Assembly (NCBI GenBank): GCA_964426185.1 | Contig: CAYRPF010000101.1 | Location: 1 to 9,093, forward strand | DNA: 9,093 nt | Direction of reading: 5' to 3' | Source: an uncultured archaeon | GTDB taxonomy: Archaea > Asgardarchaeota > Lokiarchaeia > Sigyniarchaeales > Promethearchaeaceae | Shown: positions 3-8,742 of the stretch, in pieces | Position numbering within the stretch: the stretch's first letter is position 1 | How the letters are laid out: every line of letters starts with the position of its first letter | Translations under genes and position numbers: made by a program | Notes under the pieces: generated by a model | Told to the model about the DNA's origin: nothing | Databases searched by the model: none | Seen by the model: only the letters and a program-made list of their open reading frames with translations

Positions 3-3000
3 GATTTGGGCATCGATACTATTAAGCAAGCAGAGATCTTTGGACAGATTCGTGAAAAGTGGCAGATACCAGAAAATGTTGAAGTGAATCTTGCAGATTT
101 TCGAACAATTGAAGATATAGTTAGAATTATTAGATCTTTAGAAAAACCATCGAAAAATGCCTTTTCATCAAATTCAGAGGATATTTCACATGATTTCCAA
201 TATTTAGAAAATATTGAGGAAGATTCTGAAAATAATATTTCAATTTTCTCTCTAAAATCAATTTTGCTAGAAAAACCAAGTGAAAGGGAAGAAAATGAAG
301 AAATTTACAAAAGACCTTTAGTTTTAATCGAGTTTAATGACCATTCACATTTGAATGATAAAGTTCAAGAAGTTTTACAAAGCCGACAGATTAAAATAAT
401 ACCCGTAATATTGAATACCGAATATAATAGCGATGAAATCAAGCGATTCACTGAAAATATCAAAGAAAAACATCATGTTGATGCAATTACACTTGGAATT
501 ATTACACCTGCTCTTGAACAAGAGGATTATTTCCAAAGTTCAGAGAGTATATTAATGGTACTTTTCCATTTTCTAAAAGCTTTGAATCCTGCAATTATTC
601 AAAGTTGTTTTATTTTATCAAATGAAACAATCCTTTCTTCAACTGATATTTCTAATCCCGTAAGTTCTGGAATATCGGGTTTTCTTAAATCGCTTGGTAA
701 AGAATTTAAATTCGAATTTCGACATATTTATTTTTATGATGTAAAAGATGCGATTTCTGAATTATTATATCAAGAAACACTTTCAGAAATCATCTATAAT
801 AAAGAAGGTTTGCGTCATACAATAGATCGAGTCAAAATTTTGCCAACTGACAATGCAAAATCAATTAATATAGAAGAGAATGATTTAGTTTTAGTAACTG
901 GAGGTGCAAGAGGGATTACCTTTGAATGTATTGATAAGTGGACGAATAGTGTCCATCCTTCTCTTATTCTGATTGGTCGAACTCCATATGATTCTTCTCT
1001 AGAATCATACTTACACTATACTGAAGAGCAACTAACTAATCTTAAAAAACAAAAGATTCGCTACTTAAAAAAGCATAATCCATCAATTACACCTGTGCAA
1101 GTTCAGAAAGAATGGAAGAAATTCTTGAACCAATTAGAATTGATAAAAAATCTTCGAAAATTACGAAATAAAGGGATCCAAGTAGAATATTATGATTGCG
1201 ATGTCACAGATTATGATAAAATGGCCGAAATCTATGAAAAAATAAAAAATCAGTTTAAAACACCCGTTTCTGTGATTATTCATGGAGCAGGCATGGAAGA
1301 ATCCAAGAATTTTGAGAAAAAATCTGCATCAATGGTAAAGCTTATTCATGATATAAAAGTCAAGGGTTTTTCAAATCTTCTAAAGATCTTTTCTAAAGAT
1401 TTCTTGAAATATTGTGTTGTATTTTCCAGCATCGCTGGAAGATATGGGAATACTGGACAAGTTGATTATGCCTATGCCAATGCTTTTCTCTCAAGGATGG
1501 CATGGAATTCTCATAATTCAATACCGATGTTAGTTATTGATTGGTCAGCTTGGACCGGAGTGGGAATGGCCACACAAGGTTCAACTTTGAAAATTTTAGA
1601 AATGGCTGGAGTAACACCTATTCCTGTGAGAACTGGAACAGAAATTTTCTCGTTTTTGCTTAGAAATGGCTATACTGGAGAATATATTGTTGCGGGAAAC
1701 ATGGGTATATTTGAACCAAACTTAACTATTACCACAAACTTGGAACCTGAAAAGTTTCCCATGATAAGTTCCGTTCAATATCATAAAGGTGATACTTTCG
1801 GTATTCATAAACTTTCTACAAAGCGAGATTTTTATCTCATCGACCACCAAATTGGCTCAAAACCTGTTTTTCCAGGAGTCATGGTGCTGGAATCTTTCGC
1901 TGAATTCTATAATTCCATTTCTCAAGAAGATCAATTTGATATAATTGATGTTGAATATAAAGTACCGTTAAAAATGCTTGAAGGAAAAGAAACAGAGATA
2001 AAAATGCTCTATAACTCTGAATTTGTCAAGGAACAAGAAGATAATTACGGTAAAGTTATTCCATACCTAATTTTTCAATCAATTTCTTATCCTAAGGTAA
2101 TGAAAGGAAAACCTTTAGTTAAAAATCATTTTACCGGAAAAATATTATCATTATCTGGGAATTCTATGTCTTCTTCCCTTTCTATAAAGATTCCTAAGCA
2201 CATTCCATTTATTTCGTTATTCTCTCAAGAAGAAATATATTCCATTTTCTTTCATGGACCACGATTCAAAGTGATTGAAAAATTATTGATTTGGGAGCAA
2301 GATTCGCTTTTAACGAAAATATCATGTAAAAATGAATTATTATTTTCATCCAATCTCCAAAAACCATCAAAAGAACGATTTTTATTCAATCCATTAGGTA
2401 TTGAGAGCCTTTTCCAGACCGCAGCACTGTATGATTTAGTTCGTTATTCCCAATTATCATTACCTTCTAAAATTGGGAAGATTCACAAGATATCAAATGA
2501 AATACCTCAATATGCTTATGTTATCTATCGAGGAAGAGATGGAACTCATAGTTATTTTGATGCCGTTCTTTTAAACTCTGATAAATCACCCATTTTGGAA
2601 CTTTATTCTCTTGGATTGATCCATACTGATTTGCAAATTCCTATTAAGCCCTATATTAAGGAAAAATTAGAAATTTTGGCAGAAATTGGAGGAATTTTTC
2701 CATCCGATTATAATTCCCAATATCACATCTTACCTTTGCTTCAATTGCGACAAAAATTTGAAGAAAATCCTAGCTTATTAGGTCAATATTTAACTGATAA
2801 TGAAATTCAGCAGATTCAAGAAATTAAGAATGAAAAACGACGATATGAACGAATTGCAGGAATTATATGTGCAAAAAATGCCTACTTTAAATTTTTAAAC
2901 AAATCGGAGCAATATTTAGCGATAGAGGTAATAAAGAAAAAAACTGGTCAACCCTTCATGAAATCAAGTAAATCTTTAGAAATTCTTCCAGTGTACCTTT

Positions 3001-3404
3001 CAATAACTCATTCGAATTCATTTGCTTGTGCTGTTGTTAGTAATCATCCAATTGGAATCGACTTGGAAAAAATAAAAGATCGAAATACATCATTTTACAA
3101 AGAAGTATTTACGCCTCTAGAACAACGTTTCATTCAAGAGAATTCTTTATTGGGGACTAAATTCTGGACTATTAAAGAAGCATTTTCAAAAGCAATCGGC
3201 ACTGGTTTATGCATTAATTTAAAACAGCTTGAGATTTCTCATTCTTCTGAAAATAATCACTTTGATCTTACCTATTTAGGAGAAGAAAAGCGTTTACGAG
3301 AACTTGTTGAAAATGTAAAATGGATTTCTAATCAAAATAAAAACTACATTCTAAGCTTATGTGAAATACCCAAAGAAATCTTTAAGAATTTGGAGGAATT
3401 CTAA
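3..3404 (+). CDS. Type I PKS/FAS-like megasynthase, C-terminal part (5'-truncated): ACP - KR - DH - Sfp-type PPTase
   Basis: The frame is open from the window edge; TTG at 6 is an internal Leu of DLGIDTIKQAE (ACP signature, 3-35). KR: TGGARGI (897-917), HGAG (1281-1292), FSS (1422-1430), catalytic Y in GQVDYAYAN (1467-1469), and a PfaA-type helical insert containing ITPVQV. DH: DHQIGSKPVFPG (His 1845-1847), FHGPRF (2250-2267), NPLGIESLFQ (2388-2417). PPTase: LSITHS, GIDLE (3054-3068), FWTIKEAFSK (3162-3191). KS/AT presumably lie upstream of the window. Confidence 0.92.
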   Translation, partial: DLGIDTIKQAEIFGQIREKWQIPENVEVNLADFRTIEDIVRIIRSLEKPSKNAFSSNSEDISHDFQYLENIEEDSENNISIFSLKSILLEKPSEREENEEIYKRPLVLIEFNDHSHLNDKVQEVLQSRQIKIIPVILNTEYNSDEIKRFTENIKEKHHVDAITLGIITPALEQEDYFQSSESILMVLFHFLKALNPAIIQSCFILSNETILSSTDISNPVSSGISGFLKSLGKEFKFEFRHIYFYDVKDAISELLYQETLSEIIYNKEGLRHTIDRVKILPTDNAKSINIEENDLVLVTGGARGITFECIDKWTNSVHPSLILIGRTPYDSSLESYLHYTEEQLTNLKKQKIRYLKKHNPSITPVQVQKEWKKFLNQLELIKNLRKLRNKGIQVEYYDCDVTDYDKMAEIYEKIKNQFKTPVSVIIHGAGMEESKNFEKKSASMVKLIHDIKVKGFSNLLKIFSKDFLKYCVVFSSIAGRYGNTGQVDYAYANAFLSRMAWNSHNSIPMLVIDWSAWTGVGMATQGSTLKILEMAGVTPIPVRTGTEIFSFLLRNGYTGEYIVAGNMGIFEPNLTITTNLEPEKFPMISSVQYHKGDTFGIHKLSTKRDFYLIDHQIGSKPVFPGVMVLESFAEFYNSISQEDQFDIIDVEYKVPLKMLEGKETEIKMLYNSEFVKEQEDNYGKVIPYLIFQSISYPKVMKGKPLVKNHFTGKILSLSGNSMSSSLSIKIPKHIPFISLFSQEEIYSIFFHGPRFKVIEKLLIWEQDSLLTKISCKNELLFSSNLQKPSKERFLFNPLGIESLFQTAALYDLVRYSQLSLPSKIGKIHKISNEIPQYAYVIYRGRDGTHSYFDAVLLNSDKSPILELYSLGLIHTDLQIPIKPYIKEKLEILAEIGGIFPSDYNSQYHILPLLQLRQKFEENPSLLGQYLTDNEIQQIQEIKNEKRRYERIAGIICAKNAYFKFLNKSEQYLAIEVIKKKTGQPFMKSSKSLEILPVYLSITHSNSFACAVVSNHPIGIDLEKIKDRNTSFYKEVFTPLEQRFIQENSLLGTKFWTIKEAFSKAIGTGLCINLKQLEISHSSENNHFDLTYLGEEKRLRELVENVKWISNQNKNYILSLCEIPKEIFKNLEEF
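3392..3397 (+). promoter_or_regulatory. Shine-Dalgarno-like GGAGGA for the hydrolase gene
   Basis: GGAGGA ends 6 nt before ATG 3404, inside the last codons of the PKS; the stop and start overlap as TAATG. Confidence 0.6.
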
Positions 3405-4219
3405 TGAAGAAAATCGTGCACGAAATTATTGTTAGAGAAGAAAAACTCCACGGAATACTTTTTCTTCCTGATCAAACAACTAAGTCTAAGTTAAAAGATG
3501 ATTCTGAGGAAGCATCTAAAGACTCCGAGGTATTTCCATTAGTAATCCACATCAATGGAATGCCCGGGACTTCACCCGAAGAAGATCAAGAACGGTTTGG
3601 GCAGTGCTTCACCCAGAATGGAATTGCACTCTATTGTTTTGATCACCTCGGGGTTCGCCAGAGTTCTGGGGTCTTTACCTACTTTGCGGCTCAGGCAAAT
3701 ATTGAGTATGTAATTGATAATCTGGTTCAACATCCACAGATTGATCCTCTCAAAATTGGTTTACTAGGGGAAAGTTTTGGGGGTGCAATGGCTCTATGTC
3801 ATACTGCCAGAGACAATAGAATTTCTGCAATCGGAGTTAGATCACCAGTTTTTGACACGGAAATAATTCCTACTTATGGATTTTTTGATGATCTATTGAA
3901 AATTTGGACCAGAAACAAACAAATGCGATTTCCTTCAGGTAATGATTTAAAAAATATCTACATCACTCAAACTCGCCACTATAATCCCAAAAATATGATA
4001 AAAAGGATCAGCCAACCATTTTATTTAGTTGCAGGAAAAAAAGATGAACTACTAGGATATCAAGGATTTGAAAACCTTTTCAAAGAAATTCGTTCTTCAG
4101 TCAAATTTTTTGATCTTCATCCTAAAGCCAATCATAATTTTTCAGATAAAAGTGATTTTGAAAAAATGCGTAATACTTTTGTAAAATTTTTTAATAATGT
4201 TTTATTCAAAGAAAGATGA
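3404..4219 (+). CDS. Alpha/beta-fold serine hydrolase (possible thioesterase)
   Basis: Nucleophile elbow GESFG (Ser 3773-3775), acid in AGKKD (Asp 4043-4045), His in ANHNF (4133-4135), FDHLGVRQSSG strand-turn and oxyanion-loop-like INGMPG. Confidence 0.88.
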   Translation: MKKIVHEIIVREEKLHGILFLPDQTTKSKLKDDSEEASKDSEVFPLVIHINGMPGTSPEEDQERFGQCFTQNGIALYCFDHLGVRQSSGVFTYFAAQANIEYVIDNLVQHPQIDPLKIGLLGESFGGAMALCHTARDNRISAIGVRSPVFDTEIIPTYGFFDDLLKIWTRNKQMRFPSGNDLKNIYITQTRHYNPKNMIKRISQPFYLVAGKKDELLGYQGFENLFKEIRSSVKFFDLHPKANHNFSDKSDFEKMRNTFVKFFNNVLFKER

Positions 4220-4318
4220 GCTATATCCGAAGGGATTTGTATCTTTGATCTCTAGATCGAGAAGTCGGCGTTTTATCATAGTTTGATACTTGATCTCCGA
4301 GAGAATAACCCAAGATAC

Positions 4319-5404
4319 TTAGTTCTTCAAGATTTTTTTTAATTCATTTCCAATAATTGTACCCATATCTGAACAAGTTGTTTTTTTTAATTTTTTAGTT
4401 TTATCTACAGATCTTGGATAAATATCAAGAGTTCTAGATTCCTCAAGTGAAGTTATTACCGCTTTTTCAATAAACTGCGCTAATTTTGGATCATTGAATT
4501 TTTCTTCAATCATTAGTTTGCATGACAAAATTGCCCCAATTGGATTAGCTATATTTTTTCCCGCAATATCTGGTGCAGAACCGTGAATTGGTTCGAAAAG
4601 GGCTAAACCATTTGGGTTAATATTAGCACTTGGTACCATACCCAAAGAACCAATCAACATTGCGGCTTCATCGCTAATTATATCACCAAACATATTTTCT
4701 GTAACCACTGTTTGAATTGTTGAAGGCGATCTAATTAACCATTGACAAAATGCATCTACATAGAAGTGTTTCTTTGAGATTTGGGGATATTTCTTGCCTT
4801 GTTCATTGAAAATCTCTCTCCAGAATTCACTGCAGGCCAACATATTAGCTTTATCCACTGAAATAATTTCGGTATGATTTTTACGCACTGCAAATTCAAA
4901 GGCATATTGAATGATACGCTCCACCGCCTTTCGTGAATATACCATTGAATTAACTGCACTGTCTTTATTGACGATGCCTCCTATTCTTGCATATAATCCT
5001 TCCGTATTTTCTCGAATAATTGAGATATCAATGCCATTAGGAAAGAATTCTGGCTTTAAGGGGCAGATATCTTGTAATGGTTCATATTGCTTTACAGGGC
5101 GTAAATTTACATAAAGATCGAATCCTTGTCTCATCTTTAAAATTGCAGATTCTGCTACTCCTGCTGGTAAATCTGGGACCCCTATAGCTCCAAAAAGGAT
5201 AGCATCACTTGATTTCATCAAATTAAATGATTTTTCTGGGAGATTCGTGCCAGTCTGTTTGTAAACTTCTCCTCCCAAGGGCGTTTCAATTAAATTGAAA
5301 TCATAATTGGTATATTGGCCAATAATTTTGAGAATTTTCACACCTTCGTTGATAACCTCAGGACCTATACCATCCCCTTTTGCTATTGCGATGGTTTTTT
5401 CCAT
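4319..5404 (-). CDS. leuB: 3-isopropylmalate dehydrogenase (isocitrate/isopropylmalate dehydrogenase family)
   Basis: GDGIGPEV, NLRPVK, IRENTEGLY, VDKAN, ENMFGDIISD and FEPIHGSAPDIAGKNIANP motifs. The substrate-loop segment AESAILKMR resembles IPMDH, and Asp in HGSAPD suggests NAD use. The family is certain; the exact substrate is less so. Confidence 0.8.
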   Translation of the reverse strand: MEKTIAIAKGDGIGPEVINEGVKILKIIGQYTNYDFNLIETPLGGEVYKQTGTNLPEKSFNLMKSSDAILFGAIGVPDLPAGVAESAILKMRQGFDLYVNLRPVKQYEPLQDICPLKPEFFPNGIDISIIRENTEGLYARIGGIVNKDSAVNSMVYSRKAVERIIQYAFEFAVRKNHTEIISVDKANMLACSEFWREIFNEQGKKYPQISKKHFYVDAFCQWLIRSPSTIQTVVTENMFGDIISDEAAMLIGSLGMVPSANINPNGLALFEPIHGSAPDIAGKNIANPIGAILSCKLMIEEKFNDPKLAQFIEKAVITSLEESRTLDIYPRSVDKTKKLKKTTCSDMGTIIGNELKKILKN

Positions 5405-5435
5405 TTATAGTCTCAAGATATAATCTGTGGATTGG

Positions 5436-5450
5436 AATTAATACTTTTTC
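5436..5450 (-). promoter_or_regulatory. Putative archaeal BRE-TATA promoter of the leuB-like gene
   Basis: The minus strand reads GAAAAAG-TATTAATT, with the TATA-like element 34-39 nt upstream of ATG 5404; no SD is visible. Confidence 0.45.
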
Positions 5451-5455
5451 CCCAT

Positions 5456-5950
5456 TTATTCCTTAGAATTTTGCATAATACTTATTAATTCTTGATCTTG
5501 GAATACATTATCTCCAGGTTTTGGAAATATTTTAGTAATTTTACCTGATATTGGCGCAAGAATGCGGTTACGCATCTTCATTGCTTCCAAAATTAGAAGT
5601 TCTTGCCCTTTTTTAACGATGTCTTGTTCTTTTACTAGTATTTGAAAAATTTTTCCTGGAATTGGAGCTTTCACATTAGAATTTTTAGGGAGATTGGAGT
5701 TTATTATCGAATTTTCCACTTCAATATAGGGTCTAATATTAATATCCACTTCTTCTCCTTCAAGATAAAATTTTCCATTTATTTTTTCTAAAATAAAGGA
5801 ATATTTCCCAAATGTTACTTTAAATCGATTTTCTGCTTGTTGAACCACTTTAGGGGAAAATACATAGCCATCTATTTGAATTTGTTGATTATCCAGGAGT
5901 TCTATGATAAATTCTCTTCCATGATAAATTACTTTCTTTTTTTTAACCAA
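5456..5950 (-). CDS. accB: Biotin carboxyl carrier protein of an acyl-CoA carboxylase
   Basis: EAMKM biotinylation motif (5573-5587, Lys 5576-5578), VKAPIPGKI, and a ~90-aa N-terminal extension. TTG start with AAGGAG (5968-5963) 12 nt upstream; the start is somewhat uncertain. Confidence 0.9.
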   Translation of the reverse strand: MVKKKKVIYHGREFIIELLDNQQIQIDGYVFSPKVVQQAENRFKVTFGKYSFILEKINGKFYLEGEEVDINIRPYIEVENSIINSNLPKNSNVKAPIPGKIFQILVKEQDIVKKGQELLILEAMKMRNRILAPISGKITKIFPKPGDNVFQDQELISIMQNSKE

Positions 5951-5992
5951 TACAGGTTCGCGCTCCTTAAAATTAAAATAACCCTTGAGAAG

Positions 5993-7486
5993 TTACCGTA
6001 CTTGTTCTCTCCGTGCTGATTCTCTCCATAAATTTCGAGTTGGCCGAGTTTGTATTTCGGTAACGCTTTTTGTAGGCGTCAACTTGAATAATTCCATCAC
6101 TTGGGATATTGCTGCAATTTTCATATATTCGTAATTTCTGAGAATCTTGGCAATATTTATTTGATTTAAAAATTCGGTAGAAATCGTCCAACGTTTGTAT
6201 TCTCTAGTTTCAATAATTGCTTGATGTAGTTCTAGGTTTGTCTTTAAACCAGAAATTGTTAATTCTCTAAGGGCTGTACGGGCTTGAATAATTGCTTGAT
6301 CTCGTGTTCGAGCCCAAACAATTAGCTTTCCAATTAGAGAATCAAAATTATTGGGAATAACATAATTTGGGTATATAAATGTGTCAAATCTGACATTAGA
6401 ACCACCTGGGATAATAACTTGAGTTATTTTTCCACTTTGAGGGAGATTTTGGGTGTGTGGATCTTCAGCATTAATTCGAAATTCGATAGCATGACCGCTA
6501 AATCGAATGTCTTTTTGGACATAAGTTAAAGGTTGACCTGCGGCCACTCTGAGCTGTTCTACCACTAGATCAATACCAGTGATCATTTCTGTAACAGGAT
6601 GCTCGACTTGAATGCGTGGATTTACTTCATTGAAATAAATTTTGCCATTTTTCCATAAAAATTCCGCCGTTCCTGCATTTACATATCCAAGATTCTTTGC
6701 TAATTCACAAACTTTTATTCCCAGCTGATTGATTTCATCCCGAGGGAGAAAAGAGGGTGCTTCTTCTATTAATTTTTGATTAGCGCGCTGAATTGAGCAT
6801 TCTCGATCTCCTAAATGAATAACATTTCCATGATTGTCTCCAATGAATTGGATCTCAATGTGACGGGGATTTTCGATAAATTTTTCAATAAATATCTCTT
6901 TTCGACCGAAAAATTGTTCTGAAATTGCCTGACATCCTTCAAATGCAGATTCCAAGGTAGATTGTTCATTAACTCTTTCCATTCCTCGGCCTCCGCCTCC
7001 AAAAGCAGCTTTAATTATAATTGGATAGCCTATTTGTTCTGCTATCTCATGTGCTTCTTCCAAAGTTGTGATATATCCTGAAGATCCTGGCACAGTAGGC
7101 AGACCTACTTGAGCTGCGATTGTTTTTGCTTTAATTTTATCTCCCAGATAATCGATAATTTCTGATTTTGGACCAATTAATACTTTCCCGTTCTCTTCAA
7201 CTCTGCGTGCAAAATCCGCATTTTCTGATAAAAACCCATATCCAGGGTGAATTGCATCTGCATTAGACTTTTCAAGAATTTCTAAGATTTTTGGAATGTT
7301 AAGATATGTTTCTTGGACAGTTCCCGAACCTAATGAATAACATTCATCTGCTAATTTGACATGTAAAGAATATTGATCTTCTGTAGAAAATACAGCAATA
7401 GCATAAATTCCTTGCAAACGACAAGCTCGAATAATTCGAACCGCAATCTCACCACGGTTGGCAATAAGTACAGATTGAAGAGTCAT
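5993..7486 (-). CDS. accC: Biotin carboxylase subunit (acetyl/propionyl-CoA carboxylase type)
   Basis: ANRGEIA, HPGYGFLSENA, KAAFGGGGRGM, RHIEIQ, RECSIQR, EVNPRIQVEHPVTE and EFRINAED motifs; adjacent to a stand-alone BCCP. Confidence 0.93.
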   Translation of the reverse strand: MTLQSVLIANRGEIAVRIIRACRLQGIYAIAVFSTEDQYSLHVKLADECYSLGSGTVQETYLNIPKILEILEKSNADAIHPGYGFLSENADFARRVEENGKVLIGPKSEIIDYLGDKIKAKTIAAQVGLPTVPGSSGYITTLEEAHEIAEQIGYPIIIKAAFGGGGRGMERVNEQSTLESAFEGCQAISEQFFGRKEIFIEKFIENPRHIEIQFIGDNHGNVIHLGDRECSIQRANQKLIEEAPSFLPRDEINQLGIKVCELAKNLGYVNAGTAEFLWKNGKIYFNEVNPRIQVEHPVTEMITGIDLVVEQLRVAAGQPLTYVQKDIRFSGHAIEFRINAEDPHTQNLPQSGKITQVIIPGGSNVRFDTFIYPNYVIPNNFDSLIGKLIVWARTRDQAIIQARTALRELTISGLKTNLELHQAIIETREYKRWTISTEFLNQINIAKILRNYEYMKIAAISQVMELFKLTPTKSVTEIQTRPTRNLWRESARREQVR

Positions 7487-7619: not shown

Positions 7620-7820
7620 TTAATCAGATACATCTAATTCAAAGAGTTGTGAAACTGGAATATCAAAAAATTTAGCAATTTTCAATGCTAAAATAAGGTT
7701 TGGTTTTTTTGTTCCATTTTCAATATAGGAGATCATTTGACGGGATACCCCTACTGCTTCAGCAAGTTCCTGTTGTGAAAGATGGAAATTTTCTCTGTAT
7801 TCACGCACCCTATTCTTCAT
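7620..7820 (-). CDS. XRE-family (cro/C1-type HTH) transcriptional regulator, 66 aa, CylR2-like
   Basis: MKNRVREYR..LSQQELAEAVGVSRQMISYIENG..PNLILALKIAKFF..P..QLF is a complete small XRE. I moved the start from 7910 to ATG 7820, which has AAGGA at 7836-7832 and AATATAAA at 7856-7849 upstream. Confidence 0.9.
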   Translation of the reverse strand: MKNRVREYRENFHLSQQELAEAVGVSRQMISYIENGTKKPNLILALKIAKFFDIPVSQLFELDVSD

Positions 7821-7864
7821 TATCTTAGATATCCTTGAATTATGCTGCTTTATATTCATGTAGT

Positions 7865-7880
7865 GAAAAACAGAAAAAAG
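7865..7880 (-). terminator. Possible oligo-T (archaeal-type) terminator after the PH-XRE gene
   Basis: The minus strand reads CTTTTTTCTGTTTTTC starting ~14 nt after the TGA; I saw no GC hairpin. Confidence 0.35.
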
Positions 7881-7893
7881 ATAGTTCTGCTTA

Positions 7894-8742
7894 TCAATCT
7901 GTGAGTTCAAATAATTCTTCTATTGGAACTTTGAATGTATGTGCTATTTTCATAGCCAGAGTTAAAGAAGGCACGTATTCTCCTGATTCCAAATATTGAA
8001 TTGTGCTTTCTGAGACACCAATTTTATCGGCCAATTGAGGGATTGTAATTCCTTCTTTTTCTCGTAATAATCGAATCTTGGTTCTTATTTGATCTTTCTC
8101 CCGCATTTTTGATAGAAAATAGGCAATAAACTCATCAAATACCACATTGTTATCAGAAAATACATTGGACGAAACAGATTTTGGGATATTTTGTGTGTAT
8201 TTATGCACTAATTGATTCATTTTTTCCTCAATAATTGACGGATTACGAACTCCCGGGATATATCCTTCTGGACGAATACTTCCTTTTTGAGCACTTGCTG
8301 CAGCAGCACTTGAACCTGCAGTTTCGATTTTTATTTTATAAATTTTGAGTATTCGATCTCTAATGTTCTGGTAGATTGCCACGTTTTGAATGCGTGAATA
8401 AGGTATGGTAGTCTTAGTTTTAGTTAAAACACCATATCTAATTATAATAAACTTATCTGTAAATTCATATGAAAACGCTTTTACATATAATACTGAGAAT
8501 ATAAGGGTTAATCCAATGATGAGAACAGTAACTCCAATCATTACCCAGAATATGACAATCCAAAGTAATCCTTCATTTAAATTACTATTCTCATCTCTGG
8601 CGATCAGTATAATCAACCATCCAATTCCGTAGATAATCAAATCAACTAATAAAGTGCCTATTATACTTCCAATTACTTCATGTTTGACAAATGCTGGGTC
8701 AATACCATGAATATCTTCATGTTCCGATGTTGTCGGTTTCAT
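7894..8742 (-). CDS. Membrane protein: 2 TM helices + bacterial PH domain (bPH_2/YdbS-like) + C-terminal XRE HTH
   Basis: Hydrophobic segments at aa ~23-48 and ~59-87. YEFTDKFIIIRYGVLTKTKTTIPYSRIQNV..Q..DRIL....IKIETAG is the bPH_2 pattern. aa ~220-282 (nt 8085-7897) form an XRE domain. Confidence 0.88.
   Translation of the reverse strand: MKPTTSEHEDIHGIDPAFVKHEVIGSIIGTLLVDLIIYGIGWLIILIARDENSNLNEGLLWIVIFWVMIGVTVLIIGLTLIFSVLYVKAFSYEFTDKFIIIRYGVLTKTKTTIPYSRIQNVAIYQNIRDRILKIYKIKIETAGSSAAAASAQKGSIRPEGYIPGVRNPSIIEEKMNQLVHKYTQNIPKSVSSNVFSDNNVVFDEFIAYFLSKMREKDQIRTKIRLLREKEGITIPQLADKIGVSESTIQYLESGEYVPSLTLAMKIAHTFKVPIEELFELTD

Follow-up and report, generated by a model that had tools for sequence, protein, structure and literature searches.

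A candidate carrier-protein-dependent fatty-acyl synthase with threonine-type carriers, native to Asgard archaea

Do some archaea hold the genes to build acyl chains on a carrier protein? Archaea are usually said to lack carrier-protein-based, fatty-acid-like chain synthesis. The question is raised by a 9,093-bp stretch of DNA (33% GC), here called the window, which is the entire contig C101 of a metagenome-assembled genome (MAG; label G000; 3.26 Mb, 155 contigs, 34% GC, completeness 92%, contamination 2%). Its first open reading frame (ORF; 3..3404, + strand; 1,133 codons, open at the 5' end) is the 3' part of a megasynthase, with the end of an acyl carrier protein (ACP) domain, a ketoreductase (KR), a dehydratase (DH) and a phosphopantetheinyl transferase (PPTase). 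A first-pass annotation had read this ORF, a coupled serine hydrolase, a biotin carboxylase (BC) and a biotin carboxyl carrier protein (BCCP) as a polyketide synthase (PKS) or fatty acid synthase (FAS) locus, and each of these genes was recovered in place. The megasynthase belongs to a six-gene cassette (biotin ligase, carboxyltransferase (CT), megasynthase, hydrolase, BCCP and BC), which probably makes a reduced fatty-acyl chain on a carrier, likely saturated and long. In the NCBI annotation the megasynthase is merely an 'SDR family oxidoreductase', and a literature search found no paper describing this enzyme in Asgard archaea; surveys of biosynthetic gene clusters only count 'PKSs' in Asgardarchaeota in bulk. 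Eukaryotes are thought to be derived from Asgard archaea, yet their membranes are built from fatty-acid esters. With a native and intact ACP-dependent synthase that has its own supply genes, present in Loki-, Hod-, Thor- and Heimdall-type Asgards, there is now a concrete gene on which this lipid divide can be tested.

The proposal hinged on an intact ketosynthase (KS) and acyltransferase (AT) upstream of the window, and both were found on another contig, C9, along with a second KS and two FabK-type enoyl reductase (ER) domains. The only strong KS and AT matches of the genome sit at the very end of C9, in an ORF open at its 3' end (G000:C9:53478-60844; 2,455 aa). The final 19 nt of C9 are the first 19 nt of the window, and the two join in frame into a continuous ORF of 3,583 aa. 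P0002, a 2,029-aa protein encoded on a 6,088-bp contig of a different assembly, bridges the break with four ACP copies, at 99.3% identity to C9 from residue 938 to the end and 100% identity to residues 1-416 of the window. Because of this overlap and the spanning protein, C9 and the window are considered truly adjacent. Judged from the sequence at the junction, the break is an assembly failure within near-identical ACP repeats of 100 aa, and the MAG probably collapsed one of them (three copies versus four). What the window holds of the last ACP (3..152, + strand) is its C-terminal two thirds, from the DLGIDT motif, 85% identical to the ACP copies on C9. The whole gene is thus of ~3,600-3,700 codons, with the window as its 3' third, and uninterrupted orthologs reach 3,795, 3,656 and 3,509 aa. 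One further Asgard ortholog (G145:C71:157320-160610) has a 3,576-aa frame with a single in-frame TGA, which could be a sequencing error, the mark of a pseudogene or a selenocysteine codon.

The full domain order is ER'-ER-KS1-AT-KS2-ACP(3-4)-KR-DH-PPTase. ER' (residues 1-340), detected by profile search of solved structures only, is a FabK-like TIM barrel (E 4e-23 to FabK 7l00), and ER (residues 344-593) bears ECGGHIG. The motifs DAACASS, HGTST and GH are present in KS1 (residues 729-1138), and GHSLGEYSAL, the FabD signature, in the FabD-like AT (residues 1233-1527). KS2 (~1880-2160) is FabF-like, with NAACAT, HETYT and GH; Cys, His and His are all kept, and since the Cys is retained this domain is not a classical chain length factor (CLF). 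Within the window, the KR (888..1556, + strand; residues 296-518; Pfam KR E 1.3e-30) carries the NADPH motif TGGARGIT together with Lys452, invariant in alignment A3, and Ser476 and Tyr489, both invariant in 114 family members. The PKS-type DH (1770..2672, + strand; from ~residue 600; Pfam PKS_DH_N) has His615, Pro624 (HxIGSxPVFP), Glu801 and Gln805, kept in 113-114 of 114 rows. The PPTase (2736..3362, + strand; residues 912-1120; Pfam ACPS E 9e-20) has the features of the Sfp type, namely two half-domains and the GxD-x-E and W/F-x-x-KE-A/S-x-x-K motifs, here IGIDLE and WTIKEAFSK; two stretches match PF01648 with 71 bits against a cut-off of 25. The sole ACP and PPTase matches in the genome fall within this gene, and its other KS-family matches are weak and lie in ORFs of 425-442 aa. 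A FabA-type dehydratase/isomerase is absent from the megasynthase, and the six neighbourhoods inspected hold no cyclase, oxygenase or glycosyltransferase tailoring genes and no PfaB or PfaC partner genes.

From gene content, domain order, catalytic residues, nativeness and co-occurrence, all of them observed, we infer the chemical steps, the product and its fate. Biotin ligase would biotinylate BCCP, and BC, BCCP and CT would then turn acetyl-CoA into malonyl-CoA. The fused C-terminal Sfp-type PPTase would prime the tandem ACPs, apparently on threonine, and the FabD-like AT would load malonyl units. The chain would be elongated iteratively by KS1 and KS2, each with an intact Cys-His-His triad, and every unit would be reduced by the KR, the PKS-type DH and the FabK-type FMN enoyl reductase before the lipase-like serine hydrolase releases or transfers the chain. 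A saturated long chain is expected because the ER is in cis and no FabA-type enzyme is present, and the KS, AT, KR, DH and ER set, the lack of tailoring genes and the dedicated malonyl-CoA supply together point to an iterative FAS-like enzyme. By analogy with polyunsaturated fatty acid (PUFA) synthases, the two KS domains may split the work by chain length. The label 'fully reducing FAS-like secondary-lipid synthase' fits better than the earlier 'PKS'. Several points weigh against such a function. In ER' the GGH motif has lost its His, and this domain may have no more than a structural role; the DH reads ExxxQ, with Glu, where PKS dehydratases read DxxxQ, with Asp; and the hydrolase could be an ordinary esterase. 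Carrier activity would require a PPTase that accepts threonine, and the S36T exchange in Escherichia coli ACP reportedly abolishes priming. The cassette is also missing from most Lokiarchaeia sampled, the case for its function is genomic, with a predicted product, and its bacterial relatives of the Type R class, discussed below, are likewise without a characterized member.

The proposed malonyl-CoA supply is encoded on both sides of the megasynthase. CT lies directly upstream on C9 (PF01039, E 4e-191), and a biotin protein ligase, divergent and also on C9, matches PF03099. In the window, BCCP (5456..5950, - strand) has the biotinyl-lysine motif EAMKM, and BC (5993..7486, - strand), a predicted acyl-CoA carboxylase subunit, reaches 593 bits against a cut-off of 597 for NF006367; both are convergent with the megasynthase. 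As predicted from sequence only, the acyl-CoA carboxylase set is complete. Among 41 genomes of the order, the megasynthase is found in four (G000, G001, G002 and G031), and CT and BC are found in exactly those four, single copy each, beside it. The order biotin ligase-CT-megasynthase-hydrolase-BCCP-BC also occurs in G031, from another family of the order, as well as in a Heimdallarchaeaceae MAG (L028, GCA_054385855.1) and a Hodarchaeota MAG (L029). Because of this exclusive co-occurrence and linkage, the carboxylase genes are regarded as belonging with the megasynthase. The link between synthase and carboxylase that the first-pass annotation had drawn was seen in every relative examined, and the carboxylase genes were found only in genomes with a megasynthase; its gene list was right in its parts and incomplete, as it missed CT and biotin ligase on C9, the threonine carriers and a dehydrogenase gene within the cassette.

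That gene fills the ~1.2-kb stretch between hydrolase and BCCP (4319..5404, - strand) and belongs to the isopropylmalate dehydrogenase (IPMDH)/isocitrate dehydrogenase family (Pfam Iso_dh E 3e-107; TIGR00169 LeuB, 344 bits against a cut-off of 353), of which it is the only member in G000. It lies inside the cassette in G000 and G001, is not at this place in G002, G031, L028 or L029, and is probably an interloper, not part of the cassette. It also bears on the proposal that the carboxylase serves central metabolism (CO2 fixation, or carboxylation of pyruvate or propionyl-CoA) and stands beside the megasynthase by chance. BC and BCCP do not form an operon with the megasynthase but converge on it, the IPMDH-family gene intervenes in this genus, and models of pyruvate carboxylase are also among the profile matches of BC and BCCP. 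However, chance proximity is hard to reconcile with CT and BC occurring solely in the four megasynthase holders among 41 genomes, with their flanking position in Loki-, Heimdall- and Hod-type loci, or with a FabD-like AT, which needs malonyl-CoA, and this explanation is considered very improbable.

The residue at which the carriers would be primed is unusual. All 15 ACP copies of the four orthologs in G000, G001, G002 and G031 read LGIDT(I/V)KQAEIF, with Thr at the alignment position where the PigH and AcpM carriers have their phosphopantetheine Ser. These domains agree with PF00550 in fold and in the remainder of the motif, while its conserved Ser (D-S-L/I, at the start of helix II) is replaced. 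Carriers are otherwise not known to bear anything but Ser at the attachment site, and a literature search retrieved no paper on threonine-type carriers or their motif. Because the first list of homologs had been partly seeded by ACP words, the count was repeated on 80 named loci retrieved with KR-only patterns. An ACP motif was found in 76 of these: 65 have Thr only, 10 Ser only and one both. Nine of the 10 Ser-only loci have a PfaA-type Ser motif, mostly LGIDSIKRVE. One euryarchaeal locus has Ser within an otherwise Thr-type motif, and in the mixed locus, that of Candidatus Heimdallarchaeum aukensis PM71, Ser is found in two ACP copies and Thr in the third. The Thr-type motif is common to relatives in Acidobacteriota, Chloroflexota and Spirochaetota. 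Judged from these motifs, the threonine carrier is a trait of the family, common to its archaeal and bacterial members, and the interchange of Ser and Thr at this single ACP position fits a hydroxyl that is used. In every case the gene is accompanied by a PPTase of its own, fused or adjacent, a constancy that would make sense if ordinary PPTases reject Thr.

The same residue could mean that the megasynthase is a dead relic whose threonine carriers are not phosphopantetheinylated, given that Thr is present in all ACP copies and that the S36T form of E. coli ACP reportedly stays unmodified. Against this, frames of ~3,500 codons stay open across many lineages, the catalytic residues are invariant over 114 members, Thr is the norm (65 of 76 loci) and interchanges with Ser within the family, and the PPTase is always present. 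A relic is thus thought to be highly unlikely, and a working, threonine-primed carrier is preferred. If primed, such carriers would broaden known phosphopantetheinylation chemistry. Relatives with the Thr motif LGVDTVKQAE were also seen in two cultured actinomycetes, Nonomuraea rosea JCM 17326 (L052) and Planobispora takensis NBRC 109077 (L060), which makes the question testable without culturing an Asgard archaeon.

The hydrolase (3404..4219, + strand), an alpha/beta serine hydrolase and the proposed chain-release enzyme, begins with an ATG that overlaps the megasynthase stop (TAATG) and has a GGAGG 8 nt upstream, so the two genes are taken to be translationally coupled. Its triad of Ser124 (GESFG), Asp214 and His244 is invariant in 34 orthologs. 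The 68 homologs with at least 41% identity are all from Asgard archaea where the source names a host, and many are on contigs equal in length to contigs with megasynthase matches. In its AlphaFold (AF2) model (pLDDT 93), the closest fold is that of lipase 7q4j, with a monoacylglycerol intermediate (TM 0.79), followed by feruloyl esterases, monoacylglycerol lipases and the trans-acting PKS hydrolases DcsB and GrgF. A role in chain release or acyl transfer would fit this modelled fold.

Could the locus be bacterial DNA misbinned in an archaeal MAG? The window is a short contig of 9 kb with bacterial-looking genes, and no 16S rRNA gene was found in G000 with archaeal or bacterial models, so that its taxonomy was based on protein markers, synteny and a named ortholog. 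Some 5 kb upstream of the cassette, C9 encodes proteasome alpha, SBDS, Rrp4, Rrp41, Rrp42 and L37ae, the archaeal proteasome/exosome superoperon, and elsewhere the genome encodes a Loki-type actin (432 bits). Profilin gave no more than a sub-threshold match and was left aside as a marker. The best ortholog of the megasynthase (P0001 = MCF2139109.1; 51% identity, 3,795 aa) is from Candidatus Harpocratesius repetitus, on a 4,361,485-bp contig; this closed genome (G001) is of the same genus as G000. For each of the 19 ORFs of the C9 tail and the window, the best match lies within G001 850,344-880,892, where gene order and strand are also preserved. Misbinning and chimerism are excluded by the C9 markers and by this colinearity with a closed Asgard chromosome; the linkage of the contigs and an archaeal clade without a named bacterium (99% local support, see below) also count against bacterial DNA, which is left with practically no probability. 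By these markers, the host is a Lokiarchaeial Asgard archaeon, a species of Candidatus Harpocratesius, and the cassette is native to it. The superoperon, the actin and the colinearity bear out the archaeal, Asgard host that had been suspected from the window.

Full-length relatives of 3,300-3,800 aa are present in Lokiarchaeota/Promethearchaeota, Hod-, Thor- and Heimdallarchaeota (names as given by the sources), and more distant archaeal relatives in Methanobacteriota and in MAGs of Thermoplasmata and Poseidoniales. Bacterial relatives, at 22-32% identity, are found in Spirochaetota, Acidobacteriota, Chloroflexota, Myxococcota, Actinomycetota and others. These relatives in named genomes were found by an alignment-based scan, a single-protein query having given none. 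A strong megasynthase match was obtained in 18 of 151 evenly drawn Asgard genomes, and 11 of those 18 are among the 13 genomes of one family, which includes two closed genomes. Since the cassette is missing from most Lokiarchaeia sampled, their core membrane synthesis does not require it. In an unrooted FastTree built from the KR-DH part (114 rows, most without names), the 24 Asgard rows that have names all fall, along with two further archaeal rows, in the 99%-support clade mentioned above. This clade contains one coherent Heimdall group and one coherent Loki/Thor/Hod group; in the second, the four rows of Harpocratesius type branch as sister to all others. That the gene was acquired long ago and then lost in places is a reading of this pattern rather than a result. 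In a Spirochaetota relative (L030), there is only a megasynthase and a separate downstream PPTase gene. The ER pair, fused PPTase, hydrolase and carboxylase set look like Asgard additions to a shared core, in comparison with this one bacterial neighbourhood, which is thin support, since some full-length relatives from bacteria or nameless hosts hold ER and PPTase families in one protein.

Among described systems, the closest is the Type R secondary lipid synthase, KS-MAT-CLF-ACP(3-6)-KR (a pfaA homologue) with a downstream PPTase gene (a pfaE homologue) (Shulse & Allen 2011, PLoS One 6:e20146, PMC3098273). The Asgard cassette would be an archaeal variant of it, with fused parts and a supply of its own. 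Type R genomes include Koribacter, Solibacter, Elusimicrobium and Roseiflexus, with the product unassigned, and in Koribacter an acetyl-CoA carboxylase gene lies alongside; no archaea are listed there and threonine is not mentioned (PMC3098273). Shared features are the string KS1-AT-KS2-ACP(3-5)-KR, in G000, G001, G002 and G031, and a dedicated PPTase. In the Asgard version, however, the PPTase is fused C-terminally and two FabK-type ER domains N-terminally, KS2 keeps the Cys that a strict CLF does not, and the cassette further includes a biotin ligase, all the carboxylase subunits and a hydrolase specific to Asgards. Relatives in Acidobacteriota (including Korobacteraceae), Chloroflexota and Spirochaetota are at 24-29% identity, and in a tree without named Type R sequences the archaeal rows form their own clade.

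The classification of these bacterial relatives among 'secondary lipid' synthases by Shulse and Allen also lends some weight to another product, a partly reduced specialized polyketide or secondary lipid (a polyene, a hydroxy chain of heterocyst-glycolipid type, a hydrocarbon precursor or a starter), with the ER acting in some cycles only. Such a product would agree with an optional cassette (4/41 genomes of the order, 18/151 of the phylum) and with two KS domains that could partition chain lengths. Moreover, the KR-DH-PPTase string recalls enediyne PKSE, and the PfaA model TIGR02813 is the best-scoring NCBIfam match for the KR-DH part (E 1e-53). It is less easily squared with two FabK-type ER domains fused in cis, with 3-5 tandem ACPs and a KS2 that are absent in PKSE, with the lack of a FabA-type DH and of tailoring genes, or with a dedicated carboxylase, which suits bulk chain synthesis. 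Partial reduction is therefore kept as a possible but doubtful alternative, and the fully reduced chain as the favoured product.

The two families named above were themselves considered and rejected. Enediyne PKSE is an iterative type I enzyme, KS-AT-ACP-KR-DH-PPTase, with one ACP, no ER and a hot-dog thioesterase as partner. The Asgard enzyme resembles it in the C-terminal PPTase after KR-DH and in the discrete release enzyme, but it has two ER-type domains, KS2, 3-5 ACPs and an alpha/beta hydrolase as partner, and a PKSE assignment was rejected on the extra ER domains, the second KS and the multiple ACPs. With PfaA and the PUFA synthases it has in common the tandem ACPs, a KS-AT at the front and a PfaD/FabK-type ER, but not the PfaB/PfaC partners, the FabA-type DH or the LGIDSIKRVE motif carried by PfaA-type relatives. 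A PUFA synthase was rejected because the score of 181.7 bits is far below the TIGR02813 cut-off of 1,010.1 and because PfaB and PfaC are missing. Fungal type I FAS also combines an FMN TIM-barrel ER with a fused PPTase, in a two-chain barrel with one Ser-type ACP. Compared by description, it is alike in ER type, fused PPTase, self-priming and a full reducing cycle (by domain content), and different in its domain order, two-chain barrel and single Ser-type ACP. The other proposed archaeal route to fatty acids, the fatty acid synthase complex of Sulfolobus acidocaldarius, is ACP-independent and uses CoA esters and thiolase/DUF35 proteins (bioRxiv 10.1101/2024.07.05.601840), whereas the Asgard cassette is ACP-dependent by its domains.

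The lipids of diverse Asgard archaea are still an open question (2026 review). All 41 genomes of the order encode PlsC-type acyltransferases, and a strong GpsA-type match was seen in G000. A more far-reaching proposal is that the threonine-carrier megasynthase serves de novo fatty acid synthesis in Asgards, among them most of the Heimdallarchaeaceae sampled, and that the chains are fed to PlsC-type acyltransferases and glycerol-3-phosphate dehydrogenase, giving ester-type lipids. If true, this would add a new phosphopantetheine attachment residue, and the lipid divide would have a bridge that is native to archaea. With PlsC- and GpsA-type genes at hand, ester lipids are a conceivable destination of the chain, but the distribution of these genes does not follow that of the cassette, and the proposal as a whole is tentative and rather unlikely. 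As for ether lipids, canonical GGGP synthase (PF01884) is above cut-off in 30 of the order's 41 genomes. No match was found in the three Harpocratesius genomes (G000, G001 and G002), of which one is closed, and several sister genera, closed genomes included, gave no match or a sub-threshold one. Such lineages may rely on a divergent enzyme to form the first ether bond. A tie between loss of GGGP synthase and the cassette was considered and dropped, as there is no clean relation: G031 has both, and cassette-free genera lack a PF01884 match.

Some neighbouring genes may have a bearing on the cassette. Adjoining the Heimdall BC (L028:21034-23676) are genes for two proteins, one with a B12-binding domain and one in which an octopine-DH domain is fused to an NAD domain of glycerol-3-phosphate dehydrogenase type; a tie between the cassette and a glycerol backbone could follow from this. 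A hybrid histidine kinase with a receiver domain (L007:8129-9571, - strand = G000:C9:49128-50570), immediately upstream of the biotin ligase and kept in G001 at 60% identity, may regulate the cassette. The window itself has seven ORFs, two on the + strand and five on the - strand, and no Rfam families or tRNA were detected in it. Its last two ORFs are overlapping helix-turn-helix genes (7620..7910 and 7894..8742, both - strand), the first adjoining the BC side. One of the two is fused to a bacterial PH (bPH_2) domain, and both have counterparts, with 61% and 74% identity, at the matching position of the closed H. repetitus genome.

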